A stretch of DNA of 64,000 nucleotides, taken from positions 2,418,001 through 2,482,000 of the forward strand of contig OZ234493.1 in NCBI GenBank assembly GCA_965153455.1, written 5' to 3'. A model generated the notes under the pieces. It saw nothing but the letters and a program-made list of their open reading frames with translations. It searched no databases and was not told where the DNA came from. The position numbers and the translations under genes were made by a program. The stretch is from Sphagnum compactum. Its lineage: Eukaryota. Shown here piece by piece: positions 3,001 through 57,100 of this stretch (position 1 is the stretch's first letter; each line of letters begins with the position of its first letter).

Positions 3001-4475
3001 TTTGTACACACTGATGAAAACATTTTACTAACAAAAAGCATTTGTATACTTCCCACTAGACTATTAGATGTAGCATCCTCAAAATCATATGTGAAAATTG
3101 CCACCATAACCCCAGCCCCCAAAAAAACAAACCTGCTGCAAAGCTAATATAACTGATAACAGATCCACATGCAATTTCATTTGTTCTGACATTTTGTTCA
3201 AGTACAATGACATTGCTAACTCAAACATGGAATCAAAGTGGTAAAACTTCATCACAGTAAGAGTAGTCACAGTTTGTACAAGCTGTTACATACAACTTCA
3301 CAGCTCTTAACCTATGCTCTCCGCTCTACAACTTGACAAAAGATGCACATGAACAAGATTGACAGGAAGCGTGTCCTCTTTTCTAATATCAAACTGTCCT
3401 TACTCACTGCATTGATACTGAAATAGGCTCAATCTAAATGGTTATTAGGCCATCAAACTCTACCATGAGGTAATACTGTACATAAAGGGTCTCCATGGCC
3501 ATTTCTGCCACTTTGCCCGTCTACCTGGATGGCTGAACTGGCAGCTGGGCAGAATCCACCTTCCTGCTGATTCTTCTGTTCCCCTCCCATTCCCCTCGCA
3601 TTCACTTCTGCCCTTTATTGTAGGGAGCAGGTAGAGCCTTGCAGAATTTACCAGGCCCCACCTGTCCTCTAGTCCATTATTGTTCACGTTCTCTGCATAA
3701 GCAACCATGCATTGTGCATCTACTTGACACACCCACAAACCCAGATTGAACACAGCAAAGAATGCTGCTCAATTCAGGAATAGCAGTAGAAGAGCAGGAA
3801 GACAAAAGAGTGATAGATACTGTCTTTCAGGTGGCGTAGTATCCATAAATGTTCCTATCACATATCATGAAGGAAAGAACCCAAATCACAGCCATTAGGA
3901 ATGTCAGATAACAAGACACAAATATGGGTGGTAAGATCACAAATATCTGCCTCCTAGGAAGAAAGCCACACTAGAACTTTTTCTGGTCTCCAATAAATAC
4001 GTGCATGTTGGCACATAGTTTGTTTGATTCTGCTACACATTTGCTTGTCTCAATGCTGAAAAATATGATCTGCAGCCTCAGATCTGTCTAATTTCAATGG
4101 AACAGACTCATCCAAACAATAGGAGAGATTCGTACCCACATACAACAGTGAAAAGCAAAGACTAGGCAGGGAATGATTGGATGCTCCAGCTGACTAACGT
4201 ATTCTAAGACAACTAACCTAAAAGCCCAGCAAGCCATACACGTTTCCATCTACAAATTGGTGTCATTGGAACAAATGATAGAAACAGAAAAGAATCAGCT
4301 GCAGGATAAGCATCCAATTATCTAAAAACCTATGAGATCTTGCAAAAAAGACCACTGAATGATTTGTTTCTACTAATCAACCCCAACCTGCAACCGCATT
4401 AGGTTTACAACCTCTCGTGTGATCCACACCTCAGAGAATAATTATAAAGTTGAATTTGCCTCCCCTCTTTTCAGA

Positions 4476-4489
4476 CTAGGCAGCAACTC
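4476..4489 (-). CDS. Alternative terminal coding exon of the hnRNP gene. Splicing from 5354 to 4489 gives ...RQTQRGVAA* (502 aa)
   Basis: Acceptor on the minus strand reads TACTAAC-ACTTGTTTCTCTTGTGTTTTTCCAG|GA GTT GCT GCC TAG (branch point 4521-4515). Phase 1 matches donor CGAG|GTTCTG at 5353. Confidence 0.8.
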
Positions 4490-5300
4490 CTGGAAAAACA
4501 CAAGAGAAACAAGTGTTAGTAACTTCAACCTATGTTCATGGGTGTAATTATAACAATCACAACTCAATTCATCAGAGTGTATCTGTCTCTTTGACACCTA
4601 GCAAAGTACTCAGGTGAGCAATGACCACAAAAGTTCTCTGCCTGATTCACAACCCATGCCATTATTAATATGGATGACAGCACTGAAGGAACAGAAAAAG
4701 AAAATCTTGATCATTATTACACAATGTTAGCAGCCATTCCAGTATATCTCTTCATTAGATTCTGTACTGACAAACAATATAGCCTTTTGGTTTCTACATT
4801 GCAACTTATGATTGACCATCACTAGTGTGATAAAGAATAAATATAAACGTATCACCAACCTGGACAAAACAACTGACACAGACTTACTACAACAAATGCA
4901 TAGACTATGCCAAGCCTCTAAATAGTCAAGTTCTACATGCTTCTCACACAAAAATCACCAACAAACACATGAAGGATGAATGTGAGATCCATCCAGGACT
5001 GCACAGAATAACAAGACAATCACACGAAACTAGAGTCTATCGCATTTGACTTATTTCTCCCCCTATATTGACCGACTGCAGACCTATTCATTGTTGGAAA
5101 AAAAGCTGTATACCACCAACAACTTCATAGCACCTCCAGAATTGAATAAGCTTCAGTTTACTAGGATGCTATCCAGCACGACAGACTGACCTTCTACTCA
5201 AACCTCTGTGTCGACAACTACAACAAACTTGTTTATTAAGCAGAGAACCTTATTAACAAATGGTGCCCCTAAAAGCCTGACACGTGAACACATGCAGTCA

Positions 5301-7067
5301 CTAGCCAGTTCGGTCACCGTCAGCAGGGTAAGGCCTGAAACGTGCATCAGAACCTCGCTGTGTCTGTCTGCCTGCTACACCATAGCCCCCGCCGTAGCCT
5401 GCACTCCCAGCGCCTGCACCTTCTGCAACCCCAGCTCCTGCCCCCATGCCATAACCCCCACTTGCTGCACCCCCTGATCCAGATGAGCCTGTGTTATAGG
5501 CATCAGCTCCTGCAGATCTCCATGTGTTGTCTGCATATCCCGAGGAGTACATGTCCCCATAACCCCCACCATAGCTCCCACTACCAGTACCTCCTGCAGC
5601 AGTTCCATACCCACTGGATCCAGTCCCATAGCCGCTTCCTCGACCTCCATAGCCTGCAGCAGATCCATAACCACTTTCACTGCTGCCATAACCGTAGCCA
5701 GAACTGCCATAGCCTGCACTGCTTCCAGTGGCTTGACCTGCTCCAGCCCCACCTGAACCCCATGCTGCATTCCCATAGCCAGCCATACTGCCACCACTGC
5801 TGCCTCCATAGCCTCCTGAGCTACCTCCTGTGCCATATCCCCCTCCTCCACTTCCCCATGGGCTACGCCCACCCACAGGGCCACTTCCATAACCTCCGCT
5901 CCCAGCCCCTGCAGTGCCATATCCGCCACCACCACCATACCCACCCCCTACTGGAGTGTTTCCATATCCTGCACCGCCATAGCCACCTCCTCCTGCACTC
6001 CCGTAACCCATGCTCCCACCATATCCACTCCCGCCATAACCTCCATTCATTCCTCCACCATACCCTGCAGCACTGCCATAACCAGCAGCTGCTCCATATC
6101 CTGCTGCGCCATAGCCTGCATAACCTCCCCTACCCACGGGAGAGGGGCCATAGCGGCTGTCAGCCCGACCACCATAGCCAGCTCCAACAGGACTTGTGTT
6201 GTAAGCTTGGCCAAAGCCAGATCCATAGTTAGTGCCTCGGCCTCCACTGAAGCCACCGCTGTTGTTGCGCCCGGCAGCAACAGAAAGCTCCTTTGGAACA
6301 GCCCTTTTGACCTCCACCATCTTCTCGTTGAGCTCATGGAACGGTTTCAGCAGAACATTGTCCACTGCATCCTCAGAATCAAAAGTGATGAAGCCAAACC
6401 CACGAGGCCTTTGAGTATTGTGGTCATACATTACAACCACATCTGTAATAGTACCAAACTGCGCGAAATAGTTTCTGAAGTCATCTTCAGTAACAGTGGA
6501 AGCTAAACCTCCCACAAATATCTTCTTTGTCCTAGTGTGAGATGCTGCTGGCCCTTGGCCCCCGCTGCTGCTCCTAGGCACATTCTGCTGCTGCTCATCC
6601 CTGGGCACAGCTTTTTTCGCTTCCACCTAAATATACCAATTAAGAGAAAGACAGACTTAAACTAGTTATTACTCCCAGTACATACCCTGCATTGCACCAC
6701 ATCCACACGCACGCAACATCCCACGATCCATCCCCTCACAGCAGCAGACACGACAACCTTTCCCTATAACCCTTATTAGACATCACATTCAACCCCACTC
6801 GCATTCCAGCCCTAAAAATCTCCGCCTTAAGTAACTGAGGCTTACCGTTCTGCCATCGATGGTGTGCTTCTCGTTTACCACTCGATCAGCCACAGCCGGA
6901 TCCGCAAAAATGACAAATCCAAAACCTCGCGCCCGTCCGGTCGCTCTGTCCTTCATGATCACCGTTTCCGTCACTTCCCCGTAAGCTTTGAAGTAGTCCC
7001 GCAGTTTCTCCTCCGTCGTCTCCCACGATATTCCGCCTATGAACAGCTTCCCCTGATCGGAATCCAT
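5301..7067 (-). CDS. RNP1: hnRNP A/B (Musashi/RNP1-like) RNA-binding protein with two RRMs and a Gly/Tyr-rich low-complexity tail. Exons 7067-6846 and 6626-5301; 515 aa isoform ending RFRPYPADGDRTG*
   Basis: RRM1 has RNP2 KLFIGGI and RNP1 RGFGFVIF; RRM2 has KIFVGGL and RGFGFITF. Intron 6845-6627 has donor ACG|GTAAG and acceptor TTAG|GTG in phase 0, joining DGRT to VEAKKA. The N-terminus MDSDQGKLFIGGISWET resembles plant RNP1-family proteins. The symbol is family-level; orthology was not tested. Confidence 0.95.
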
Positions 7068-7267
7068 TCCCCCCTATCTCTGCTGGATCTAAAACCACCA
7101 CTGCGTGCAAAACAAAGAGCAAAACCCCAAGTTCTTCTAACGGAACCAAAGACACAAATCCCTCCGGATGATTCTTCAACCATAAAATCAAAAAACGAAC
7201 TAAAAAAACAAAACAAAAAAACAAAAAAAAGAGAGAACCGAACTCAAAAGATGCAAGTCCTCTTCTG

Positions 7268-7385
7268 CTCCTCCTCCTCCTCCTCCTCGCCGGAAGGACA
7301 AAAACCCTCCCGTAGATCGATCGCCCGGGAGGACAGAACAGAACAGAACAGAACAACACACACTCCGTGAGAGAGAGAGAGAGAC
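7268..7385. repeat. Microsatellites (TCC)n, (GAACA)n and (GA)n in the presumed 5' UTR of the hnRNP gene
   Basis: Directly visible runs at about 7268-7287, 7333-7355 and 7369-7384. Confidence 0.85.
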
Positions 7386-8899
7386 GAAGTGCGCGAAAAG
7401 GAACAAAACAGCGAAGCGAACAAACCCACCCGCAAACAAACAAAATTAAAAATGCGTTACTGACTTACACCCCCTTGTTCCCGCATCCACGGCTGCAGTA
7501 GATTAGAAACGAAGATGGACGGCACAGATCGTGTCCCATCCCCCCCCCCCCCCACCACCGGCACCGGGGGTGAACTCACTATTTCTATTATTGCTTGGGC
7601 TTCGCGCTGTTTCATAGTAACAGTGCCGATCAATTATATTATATTATATTATTATTATTATTATTTAAGCGCAATTATTCCAAAAGTAAGGGATCACATA
7701 AAAATATAATATAATATTTATTTATTTAAAATTTCACACGATAAGGTTGAGTGTACACAATGAGACACGTAGTTATTATATTTATTTAGGTAACTACATT
7801 TTTTTAAAAAAATATTTTCAAAGCATTTTTGTTCAAAATTCCCAACTTATGAATTTTGGATGAAACTCATTAGCCTATCACTCAACTTCCCATGTGTGTT
7901 GCTTCTTCACAAAAGGGTTAAGTAGGCTTAAATTATAAATGTATCATGATTTAAAAAAATAAAATGACCTATGTATGTTTGTTAGTTAGTTATTAACCTA
8001 AAAATTAGGAACTTTTTCCGTTACTCATTGGAAGAATCATGAAATGAAAAAAACATTTTGAAAACGGAACATTGATTTAATGGCTTTTTTATGAGTTGTT
8101 TTATCTTTGTGTTTTCATTTTTAAGATTTATTTTTTGAATTTGTTAATGTTAAACATCAACTTAGCACACATTTAATTTAATGTTGTGTGCCACTTAACA
8201 TTTCACCTAAATTTTGATATTAATTAACATCCTTGATTTAAATAGAAAAAACATTTGTCTTTCTTAACATCAAGTTAACATTAGGTTAGGTGTGATCATT
8301 GTAGACTTAGAGAGTTAATTGTCAATATGGCATTTTCACATTTGTGAGGTTATGTGCTTTGAAGAGTCCTTGGTTTGTATAGGTGACATAGATTCCAAGA
8401 CATAGACTAAAGATGGAGATCACTTGTGTACTAACATATTGGGTGCTACATGTGATTAGATTAAACATAGACGTTATTGGTTTTTTTTTGTTTTTGCCAA
8501 GTTTTTGCATCCTAGCAACCAAAAAAAAAAAGAAAAAATTAATGTGATAAATACAAAGGTTTTAAAAATAAAAATGGCTCAAAATAATCACATTATGATA
8601 ATTTTTTGAACTTGCAAGAATTACATAATAAGTCTTATTGTGTCACCAAAATATAACATGATTACTAGACAATTCTACTTTCCTTTCTAACATGTAACCA
8701 AATTTGGCTAAGTCCTATTGCCAGAACACCTACCTCACAAAATTGAAAAACAAATAAAATCCATCAATTGACACAAGCTAGTAATTAAGGCTAGTAATTT
8801 CATTTACTTGTGTCTTAACCTTATATCCTTAACTTTATGTACATTCAAAAAACTAAAGCCTTAATTGGTGGTGTTAAACAATTATGTTTTTATTTGTCC

Positions 8900-54174: not shown

Positions 54175-57100
54175 TTAGGTCTCCTCTAGTTTTTCCAACT
54201 TAAATATTTTGTTGGTTAGTACTTTCATTGTGTTAGTGACATAGTACGTTCCTTGGTGAAGGTAGGTAATAGATATTTTGTAGGCATTAATGGGTACAAT
54301 CCATACACCAACTGGAATGGTGTGTGCCATGTGCTTATAGTAAACAAACAATATTGCCCCCAAATGTTCATCCCAGTCATTCCTCTTTTCAGTTACCAAT
54401 TTGGTTAACATGGTGCCAATTACCTTGTTTGCGACTATGCCTGCCCATTACCTTGAGGGGAATAGGTAGTAAAAGTATGTGTTGAAAAAATAATGGTTCA
54501 CCAAGTGGGAAATTGTGTCATTAATAAAATGCACGACTTGGTTCAAGACCATAGTTAAAAAACATCCAAACCTGGTCAAAATGCACTCATATTAGAATTT
54601 GGCTATAACTACTACCGTGTTGGAACATAACACCCTTGCTTCCACCCATTTGGTGGCGTAATCCATCGCCACCAAAATGTATTTATTCCATGTGTACTTT
54701 CCCATTAGTTTCATTGGTCCAATAAAGTTTAATCCCCATTTCATGATTGGGTTTGATGGTAATGCCATTATTAGTTTTGTTATAGTGGGAAAGGTCAGGT
54801 TTTTTGTTTTTTGACATTCATCATAAGATCTACAAAAATGCAAGGTGTCTTTGTAGATACTAAGCCACCAATAGCGTGCATCCAAAAAATATCTCATCGT
54901 AATTTCAATAGAGAAATGGTTTCCTCCTAGCCATTTGTGTAGTTCAGTGAGGATGATAGTGGCCCCATTAATGTCCAGACAACGTCTTAGTACCTTGTTG
55001 TAGCTTTAATAATGTAGGTTAAACTCTAGTAATGTAAAGCGCAGTGCTTTCAGTTCCATCCTCTCCTTATATTCTAGAGGGTAACTGTCAAATAATACCC
55101 CAGTATGAAGGTAGGTACTGACATTCGACAACTAGTCAGGCAATATCGTGAATAGAGGGGCATCTATTGTCTGGTCAAATACCCTTGTGGTTCTATGTTA
55201 TGAAGGAGACGAGATAAAATGTCTACCACCAAATGAATACGCCCTGGTTTATAGATGATGGTAAAGTCATTTTCCAAAAAAATAGTAACCATTGCGTAAT
55301 TCTACCCAAACATCTATGGTTTGTTGATGAGGTAGGTCAATGCCATGTGGTCCACGTAGAAGACAAATTTGTTGTTGAGGAGGTAGTGGTAAAATATATA
55401 TAGGGTGTAGACCATGGTTAATGCCTTTCGTTCTGTTGTGGTATAGTTTTACTTTGTTGAACTTAACAAATGCGAAACATATGTAATAGGTTGATCGCAT
55501 TTACAATTCCGAGTTTAGGCCAACATAACCCCTACCATTAAATTGGATGCGTCCGTATGTACATGGAATTCTCTTTCCCAATTTGGTGCAACTAGAATTA
55601 GGGCCTTCACGTATTTTTGCTTTATGGTCTCCCACGCATCTTAGCATTCTTGAGTCCAAATGAACTCCTTCGATTCTCACATTATTTTTGTGATGGGTGC
55701 CATAATGAATGCAAAAATTTTCACAAAACATTGGTAGAATTGGACTAAGTTGTTGAAGACTTGAATATCATGAAGGTTTTTGGAACGAGCATTTTTACAA
55801 TCGCTTCTACCTTTTTTGGATCTAGTAGTTTCCTGTCCTTGGAGACTATGAAGCCTAGTATCATGCTTGAGAATACCGTGAAGGCACACTTTTTCGGGTT
55901 TAGACTTATCCCATATTCTCGACACTTTTTGAAACACTTTTGTAGTTTGGATAAATGTGTATCCAAATCACTAAAGACCATGAAATCATCCAAGAAAAGT
56001 TTCATAAAGGCATCCTTGAATACCTTACTCACCACTCTTTGGTAGGTGGGTGGTGCATTCTTGAATCCAAATGGCATTACCACCCACACAAATGTTCCCC
56101 AATCCGTAATGAATGTTGTCTTGTAATGGTTTTTGGGGGCAATTTGAATTTGATGGTATCCGGAAAAACCATCCAAGAACAAGTACACTTCATGACCCAT
56201 TGCCTTGTCCAAAACCTCATTGGTGAAAGGTAAAAGGTACGGGTCTTTTTTTGTGGTGGCGTTCAATTTCCGAAAATCAATGCATATGCGCAATTTGCCT
56301 TTCTTTTTTGGTGCTACCACAATTGGTGATAGCCAAGTTGCTTGCTCTATCGGCTCAATGAAGACAGCCTCCAACAACTTATTAAAGTCTTGTTTAACAA
56401 TTATTACATAGTTTGGATTCATGTGGTAATGTGTTTGGTGTGAAGGGGGAATGGTAGTGTCAAACTCAGTTTTGTGCTCCACAATGTGAGGTGGGATCCC
56501 TTTGAGTTCCTTATAATTCCATGTGCCCACATCTTTAAATTCTTGCAACAGACCTTCTATTGTTGTAGTTACTGTACATGTCCCCTCCAAGTTAACATTT
56601 AACTTGAGGTATTTTGGGTCTTATATTATCCCCATATTGATTTTTCAAACCCAAGTGTTTTGGGACAAAGTCCATTCTGTAATTCTGAGATTTTTTACCT
56701 TTTCCATGGTAGGGGTTTCATCCACCACTATCGTTCGTGGTTCATGGTGAAATTGGATCTGTGGCTCAAATATTGCCTGATTAGGGAGGGTAATCATCCC
56801 TATGGAGAATAGGTTAAGCTCAGAGGAAAACGTGATTTTTTTTTCCTCATCTATTTTTCCCTCTATGAAATTGTAGCTGACTACCATTTGTGGTCTTTTG
56901 ATATTCCCACTCAAGTACTTGGAAACAAAAATTGTTTTGACAGTCCCATTACCCTCTATGGTGACCATATTGGTCCCCTAATCATGGACCACCTTGGCAT
57001 CCCATGACCATGGGCGTCCCAATAGCATGGAGTAGGGTCCACTGCTTTGTTATTCATCATTGTGAAGGTAACTATGTATAGTATGCCATGGATTTTGATC

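Follow-up and report, generated by a model that had tools for sequence, protein, structure and literature searches.

Alternative 5′ splice sites give a Sphagnum hnRNP 1/Musashi-like gene two conserved endings, one of them a putative PY-NLS

The gene, its terminal intron and its RNA

A 64,000-nucleotide (nt) stretch of the Sphagnum compactum genome (GenBank assembly GCA_965153455.1, contig OZ234493.1, positions 2,418,001 to 2,482,000 of the forward strand), here called the window, carries on its minus strand a gene of the plant heterogeneous nuclear ribonucleoprotein (hnRNP) 1/Musashi-like (MSIL) family. Alternative donors in the terminal intron of this gene give a protein that ends either in a tail with the motif RFRPY, a putative proline-tyrosine nuclear localisation signal (PY-NLS), or in the three residues VAA. 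The gene starts with an ATG at 7067 (all coordinates are those of the window). The coding part of exon 1 (7067–6846) specifies 74 amino acids (aa) and most of the first RNA recognition motif (RRM), and it is followed by intron 1 (6845–6627), a GT..AG intron that is efficiently removed. Exon 2 begins at 6626, and its common part (6626–5354) encodes the end of RRM1, RRM2 and a low-complexity region that runs to ...GYGVAGRQTQR and the first base of a glycine codon. The two N-terminal RRM domains are supported by one Pfam RRM_1 match in each exon translation (E=1.1e-17 for exon 1, E=1.7e-15 for exon 2).

The glycine codon, GGT at 5354–5352, is split by the donor D1 (G|GT in CGAG|GTTCTG), so that the exon ends with base 5354 and the GT occupies 5353–5352. 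When D1 is not used, the frame continues through the PY tail (5351–5301), and the 515-aa protein ends in ...GRQTQRG-SDARFRPYPADGDRTG, with a TAG stop at 5303–5301. When D1 is used, the terminal intron (5353–4490) is removed. This intron, which is partly retained in RNA, has a branch-point consensus TACTAAC (4521–4515; TACTAAT in the A′ copies described below) followed by a pyrimidine tract and located 26 nt before the acceptor AG (4491–4490). The terminal exon starts at 4489 in phase with D1, and its first codons, (G)GA GTT GCT GCC TAG (4489–4476), read G-V-A-A-stop. The resulting 502-aa protein ends in ...RQTQRG-VAA, with the stop at 4478–4476. The original prediction for this locus had named the donor, the acceptor, the branch point, the pyrimidine tract and the in-phase VAA ending, and all of them are placed correctly on the sequence.

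Two further donors lie in the 3′ untranslated region (3′UTR) of the PY-coding form and join the same acceptor (4490|4489). Donor D2 (5283–5280, ACG[T/G]|GTCAGG) is cut at 5282|5281 and corresponds to the RNA joint 4490/5283. Donor D3 (5250–5247, AATAAG|GTTCTC) is cut at 5249|5248 and corresponds to the RNA joint 4488/5248. D1, D2 and D3 are all weak beyond AG|GT. Since the PY stop is only ~19 or 52 nt upstream of the 3′UTR junction and the VAA stop is inside the last exon, both spliced mRNAs look productive. The intron-retained form, whose 3′UTR exceeds 1 kb, may be unstable.

The RNA evidence was mapped on 3300–7500 and consists of raw polyA RNA-seq reads of one run (X22) and assembled contigs of three others (X1, X6 and X15), all from different studies. 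The reads come from close relatives, most being 95–99% like the window, and they mix at least two paralogues (A and A′). Contig depths are means over whole contigs. The D1 joint 5354→4489 was found in all four runs, with 25 reads at 18 start positions in X22 and contig depths of 73.8, 31 and 16.4 in X1, X6 and X15, respectively. The D3 joint reaches contig depths of 27, 16.7 and 4.9 in the same three runs and is covered by four X22 reads, where it is listed as joint 4491/5258 with six extra letters. The D2 joint, reported at 5283 with non-canonical ends, has six X22 reads and contig depths of 35.4, 0 and 15.7. In an alignment of related loci, the D2 joint is canonical on the paralogous A′ copy (ACGG|GTCAGG), which has a G where the window has a T; the D2 joints fit the A′ copy, and D2 is a putative donor in the window's own copy, which carries T at 5282. 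The joints 4488/5353 and 4488/5248 read CT..AC on the plus strand and are canonical GT..AG joints for a minus-strand gene, and the library orientation agrees with minus-strand RNA. X22 depth is ~80 at 4146–4427, 31 at 4005–4145 and 8 at 3864–4004, which places the approximate end of the terminal 3′UTR (4475–4000).

The terminal intron is also present as RNA. An intron contig spanning 4525–5276 (4525–5203 in X15) has depths of 30.6, 12.6 and 6.1 in X1, X6 and X15, and the X22 depth over this intron is ~1.5–5. Intron 1 serves as an internal control for contaminating DNA, and its depth is 0 in the contigs of the same three runs, so that the terminal-intron signal is retention and not DNA; in X22 it is 3.7 vs 60–110 in the flanking exons. 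The VAA form accounts for about two thirds of the signal in X22 and for ~44%, 51% and 38% in X1, X6 and X15 (the summed PY-keeping depths being 27+35.4+30.6, 16.7+12.6 and 4.9+15.7+6.1), or roughly 40–65% of transcripts overall. Because the reads come from close relatives and the A and A′ copies are pooled, these shares are approximate and do not describe the window's own copy. The two kinds of mRNA reach comparable levels, and the proposal that one gene gives two mRNA forms is borne out. The prediction had set the D1 splice against a long exon that simply reads through. The D1 splice is real, but the PY-coding mRNAs are mostly spliced in their 3′UTR, through the two additional donors, and only partly intron-retained.

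Two other candidate splice variants concern this gene. In 15 X22 reads (span 6846–6364, minus strand), the donor of exon 1 is spliced to a second acceptor that lies inside exon 2 (GATGCAG|TGG, AG at 6366–6365), compared with 99 X22 reads for the normal exon 1–exon 2 joint. Use of the second acceptor cuts 262 nt, shifts the frame and leads to a stop after a few codons, and it may be an unproductive variant or derive from a paralogue. P0145, a 49-aa JGI/IMG protein that corresponds to the window from ~5346 to 4489 (minus strand), ends in ...RQTQRGSD-ELLPSLKRGEANSTL. This end is the terminal exon in another frame, reached by a cut 8 nt past D1 (GAT|GCACGT) that would make a GC-AG intron; a joint of this type was not seen among the RNA joints of the four runs.

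The nearest database relatives, identified by protein search and alignment, are Sphagnum proteins with 98–99% identity, followed by proteins of liverworts, a lycophyte, ferns and seed plants, many of them named "heterogeneous nuclear ribonucleoprotein 1", "like AT3G07810" or "RNA-binding protein Musashi". The homology queries were made exon-wise, with RRM1 (74 aa) outside them. The family hallmark, a Gly/Tyr-rich C-terminal region ending in ...RQxxRG and a short tail, is present in the moss protein, and by these sequence features the moss gene is a member of the hnRNP 1/MSIL family. The region behind RRM2 (309 aa) contains 41.7% G, 13.3% A, 13.3% S and 11.3% Y, with 26 GYG motifs. The protein had been called prion-like. 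This description holds in the sense of FUS and hnRNP A, whose Gly/Tyr/Ser-rich low-complexity type the region resembles in composition; it does not hold in the sense of the Q/N-rich yeast prions, as the composition count gives only 2.9% N and less than 1.9% Q.

Three Sphagnum orthologues (P0003, P0004 and P0005) are annotated at 481, 437 and 427 aa vs 515 aa in the window gene, and each is without a different Gly-rich block (window 6300–5400, minus strand). These gaps may be introns that the gene models placed in repetitive coding sequence, since no joint inside 5400–6300 is listed in the RNA. The upstream or 5′UTR sequence (7193–7391 and ~7545–7560, minus strand) contains a long G run and simple repeats of the types (CT)n, (GTTCT)n and (GGA)n besides T-runs. 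The repeats at 7193–7391 were skipped in the read mapping, and the depth is 0 above 7248. Elsewhere in the window, open frames at 56620–54592 on the minus strand encode a reverse transcriptase domain (RVT_1, E=8.6e-24) along with the zinc-binding domain of an integrase (E=3.3e-08), and they belong to a retrotransposon remnant.

Conservation of the two endings

The PY tail was aligned for 12 sequences, comprising the window, Riccia, Calypogeia, Diphasiastrum, Adiantum, Ceratopteris, a Spirogloea-type (zygnematophyte) alga and unnamed transcripts. The columns G-x2-GRQxQRGxDxRFRPYP, among them R48, F49, R50, P51 and Y52, are invariant in all 12 tails, over which GRQTQRGPDARFRPYP is almost letter-perfect. 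Among 135 relatives (a redundant set in which cluster members are counted), 26 have an RFRPY-type tail as their C-terminus, and the tail is carried by 14/14 matches of a search with the last 52 residues alone. A tail profile run against 1.84 billion representatives identified 10 proteins at E<=0.001, and one of the clusters includes a Picea sitchensis protein. A search from the Picea protein found the PY tail in proteins of Wollemia, Cryptomeria, Ginkgo, Taxus and Araucaria, the gymnosperm tails being close variants of the invariant motif. The original prediction had raised the question of whether RFRPY is conserved just past the donor, and it is strongly conserved there from alga, bryophytes and lycophyte to ferns and gymnosperms. 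None of the matches listed is an angiosperm protein with an RFRPY tail, which is an absence at this sensitivity and no proof of loss.

The VAA ending has its own relatives. Tails of the type RG-[VIL]xx were found in 76 of the same 135 relatives (33 IAA, 12 IAT, 7 VAA, 2 VAAQSL and others), in agreement with the QRGIAA-like endings that the original prediction had named for angiosperms. Several angiosperm models turn to unrelated peptides exactly after RG (e.g., ...NRGKIFF...), which is what read-through of a conserved donor would give. In Diphasiastrum, the annotated isoforms of one locus end in RG-VAAQSL or in a degenerate read-through, RG-PHSFFNLDCFS; those of a second locus end in VAAQSL, VQSDY or FYIRF, and a third locus has the PY tail only. 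Based on these comparisons, the VAA ending of the moss is a homologue of the IAA/VAA ending of seed plants. Some seed-plant relatives (P0097, P0249, P0217, P0222 and others) stop at or just before RG (...GRQSQRQ*, ...RQAQQH*) and have neither tail, which suggests that the protein of another subfamily terminates in a third manner.

Paralogous moss genes were collected from metagenome contigs scanned with the tail profile, which gave 24 loci that fall into roughly six groups of genes. Each of the 24 has both the PY tail and the D1 G|GT. Group A is ~96% identical to the window and group A′ ~82% over non-coding DNA, and the acceptor and the VAA mini-exon are kept in 8/8 A/A′ loci, where the sole change is a synonymous GCC→GCT. 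In group F, the most divergent Sphagnum-type paralogue, the sequence cag|GG GTT GCT GCC CAG TCT TAA is found at +794 in 4/4 loci and encodes G-VAAQS*, which nearly equals the lycophyte tail VAAQSL. This mini-exon was recovered by pattern search, as the non-coding DNA of group F no longer aligns with the window; in a BLASTN comparison of the region downstream in the window with groups B, C, D and F, the coding tail alone aligns. Over 405,246 bases (both strands, window and 24 related loci), AG|GN-GTN-GCN-GCN was matched 13 times, in every case at the expected site downstream of a PY tail, with no chance matches elsewhere.

Relaxed mini-exon searches in groups B, C, D and E gave nothing convincing, with B, C and D scanned to 3–4 kb. 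Downstream sequence of this length is available for L009, L012, L015–L018 and L024, while for L010, L011, L013, L014 and L019 it is less than 1.9 kb and uninformative. Groups B, C and D thus have a PY tail and no recognisable mini-exon, and PY-only copies seem to coexist with dual-tail copies. Members of groups C and D (L015/L018 and L016/L024) are paired on one metagenome contig in opposite orientations, with the stretches ~2–3 kb apart, and this arrangement was seen on two independent contigs.

Conservation between A and A′ also differs along the terminal intron. In 40-column windows, the identity is at least 0.93 from the coding tail to ~5245, a segment that covers D2 and D3. It is 0.33–0.95, typically ~0.8, in the intron body and returns to 0.9–1.0 at the branch-point region, a level kept over the terminal exon as far as ~4040. 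The 3′UTR of the terminal exon has 0.8–1.0 (mostly at least 0.9), and the identity dips to 0.47–0.78 below ~3960. Taken together, the sequence comparisons show that purifying selection was already acting on both endings before bryophytes and vascular plants diverged. The two splice forms are real and abundant, and the alternative between them is ancient.

Functional reading of the splice alternative

Transportin-1 (Kap-beta2) recognises PY-NLSs that combine an N-terminal hydrophobic (phi-G/A/S-phi-phi) or basic epitope, a disordered basic stretch and a C-terminal R-X(2-5)-PY. As had been pointed out for this tail, R-FR-PY is an instance of R-X2-PY within the wider rule R/K/H-X(2-5)-P-Y. The segment GVAGRQTQRGSDARFRPY has a net charge of +3 and is located within Gly-rich low-complexity sequence, as read from its composition. 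Like the PY-NLS/M9 signals of hnRNP A1 and FUS, the moss R-X2-PY ends a Gly-rich low-complexity region with net positive charge. Unlike them, its upstream epitope is weakly matched and its tail runs 9 residues past the PY, with a proline at +1 that is invariant in 12/12 tails. The RFRPY tail is plausibly a PY-NLS of the transportin-1 type.

A plant pathway for such signals has been described. According to the text of a recent preprint, TRN1 imports PY-NLS cargoes in tobacco and Arabidopsis in a PY-dependent manner, and the validated cargoes are JAZ1, a PLA2-like protein, IAA34, BZR1, GIS, PABN2 and SKIP5 (10.1101/2025.07.20.665762). The scan pattern used there (two basic residues, 3–20 aa, K/R/H, 1–5 aa, PY) is fitted by the moss sequence RQTQR-GSDA-R-FR-PY. 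In the text of the preprint, no mention of splicing, isoforms or RRM was found (10.1101/2025.07.20.665762).

The short ending can be compared with the MSIL proteins of Arabidopsis. MSIL2-GFP and MSIL4-GFP are reported to be diffuse in the cytoplasm and to join heat stress granules, and the proteins are translational regulators (PMC10541177). At3g07810-GFP has been described as non-nuclear (10.1101/579714). MSIL1–4 (the At3g07810/AOG2 family) share with the moss gene two RRMs, a Gly/Tyr-rich C-terminal region and a last intron after ...RQxxRG. MSIL relatives end in IAA or IAT, homologous to the moss VAA, as judged from the angiosperm relatives among the matches; the angiosperm family members among the matches that end in IAA include an At3g07810-like Hibiscus protein. 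The angiosperm matches are without the RFRPY tail, whereas the moss gene can be spliced to yield a PY-tailed form as well. By analogy, a short ending without an import signal fits the cytoplasmic location of the MSIL proteins, and a different localisation of the two moss forms (PY nuclear, VAA cytoplasmic) is plausible.

Splicing that changes a transportin signal is known in animals. Skipping of exon 9 in human hnRNP A2/B1, or removal of exon 11 together with part of M9, is reported to shift the protein to the cytoplasm and stress granules (PMC11954880). The human and the moss proteins are both two-RRM proteins of the hnRNP A/B type with alternative splicing near a C-terminal signal for transportin, which in the moss is putative. 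However, hnRNP A2/B1 is an animal gene with cassette exons and a localisation shown by experiment, whereas the moss gene has alternative 5′ splice sites in a terminal intron, known from sequence and RNA. The likeness is one of device and implies no homology between the tails. A plant family here has a device of the same kind that is built differently. In the literature searched, with subscription journals outside the scope, no report of a PY-NLS or an alternative C-terminus in plant MSIL/hnRNP 1 proteins was found.

In this gene, three weak donors compete for one acceptor, and we propose that the choice between them, by adding either the putative PY-NLS or VAA, makes nuclear and cytoplasmic forms. 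Use of D1 (5354|5353) discards the last 16 codons and gives ...RQTQRG-VAA, while use of D2 or D3, or retention of the intron, leaves the frame intact and gives ...RQTQRG-SDARFRPYPADGDRTG. The PY form would then be imported into the nucleus by transportin-1. The VAA form would remain cytoplasmic, as do the angiosperm MSIL proteins, which carry no other ending, and could take part in translation control and stress granules. We regard this reading as a whole as probable.

Several points weigh against it. The import step is argued from sequence and analogy, both protein ends being known from DNA and RNA, and the Arabidopsis localisation data concern distant orthologues, an analogy over a large evolutionary distance. 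The two upstream epitope candidates, YGVA at 10 residues before the R and RQTQR with its two spaced basic residues, are both loose fits. The signals validated in the plant TRN1 preprint, as far as its text goes, are of the basic type, with no hnRNP-type or RRM cargo among them (10.1101/2025.07.20.665762). The pooled isoform shares are only rough. Since PY-only copies seem to coexist with dual-tail copies, splicing would not be the sole way to set the balance. The "switch" may also be a fixed mixture.

In an alternative that we consider rather unlikely, splicing does select between two functional ends, but RFRPY is another short linear motif (e.g., for partner binding, arginine methylation or tyrosine phosphorylation) that tunes condensation or turnover, and the isoforms differ in something other than nuclear import. 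The conservation of the tail does reach beyond the needs of a PY-NLS (GRQTQRGPDARFRPYP, 12/12), and epitope 1 is only loosely matched. No PDB chain resembles the tail, as a sequence search of the PDB with the 39-aa tail gave 0 matches at E<=10, although this peptide is too short to be informative. On the other hand, in proteins of the hnRNP A/B type, an R-X2-PY that ends a disordered Gly-rich region is, reportedly since Lee et al. in 2006, the textbook context of Kap-beta2 recognition. The relatives that lack the tail are also cytoplasmic, according to the text on MSIL2 and MSIL4 (PMC10541177), as expected if the tail were an import signal.

It is less likely still that the main effect of donor competition and intron retention is on how much productive mRNA is made, by autoregulation through the retained intron and its long 3′UTR, with VAA and PY proteins that are functionally interchangeable. 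The proteins of the hnRNP and SR families commonly splice their own genes unproductively, which counts for such a control of dosage. In this gene, the terminal intron is retained far above intron 1 (30.6, 12.6 and 6.1 vs 0), the donors are all weak, and the frame-breaking exon 2 acceptor is in use (15 reads vs 99). However, both spliced forms look productive by the positions of their stops, and dosage control alone needs no long amino-acid conservation of both peptide ends, yet both are conserved. The idea that only one form matters, while the other reflects noisy splicing or an annotation or assembly artefact, draws on annotations that show the PY form only in Sphagnum, Riccia and Calypogeia and mostly the VAA/IAA form in seed plants, but it is very improbable and largely refuted, as each form makes up about a third or more of the signal in 4/4 runs and the PY tail and the mini-exon are conserved where the intervening intron has diverged beyond recognition.

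Evolution and meaning for the family

In a gymnosperm group (Picea, Wollemia, Cryptomeria, Ginkgo and Taxus), the donor-bearing glycine is replaced by valine (...QRV-xDARFRPY...), and in one unnamed transcript cluster it is replaced by alanine. No Val or Ala codon keeps the needed GT, and these genes would have lost the donor. In the lycophyte genes with the VAA ending, the read-through has decayed, as in the Diphasiastrum PHSFFNLDCFS.

A tentative scenario, which we hold to be possible but doubtful, is that the land-plant Musashi-like hnRNPs descend from a dual-tail ancestor whose isoforms were later parcelled out to paralogues, with MSIL1–4 descending from the NLS-less splice form. In the ancestor, one alternative 5′ splice site would have toggled the PY-NLS and given a nuclear and a cytoplasmic protein from one locus, as would still be the case in peat mosses. 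In vascular plants, PY-only copies would have lost the donor (RG→RV) and VAA-only copies would have let the read-through decay. The angiosperms would then have lost the PY copy, and MSIL1–4 would go back to an hnRNP that once shuttled, of which they keep the NLS-less form. An RRM-region tree (74 rows, angiosperms thinned to 10) has 25/61 inner branches unresolved and left out 12 rows missed by the anchor motif KLF[IV]GG, including fern and conifer PY proteins; it is too poor to test the parcelling-out and bears no claim here.

If true, this reading would give a simple reason why angiosperm Musashi-like proteins, annotated as nuclear hnRNPs, are cytoplasmic. The angiosperm members would keep the short splice ending alone, while mosses, ferns and gymnosperms also carry, or separately encode, the PY tail. 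It would also add an hnRNP-type RNA-binding cargo to the plant TRN1/PY-NLS pathway. The family may be a case of alternative isoforms resolved into separate paralogues over ~450 million years. In peat mosses, the gene may offer a handle on how one RNA-binding protein is shared between nuclear RNA processing and cytoplasmic granules.

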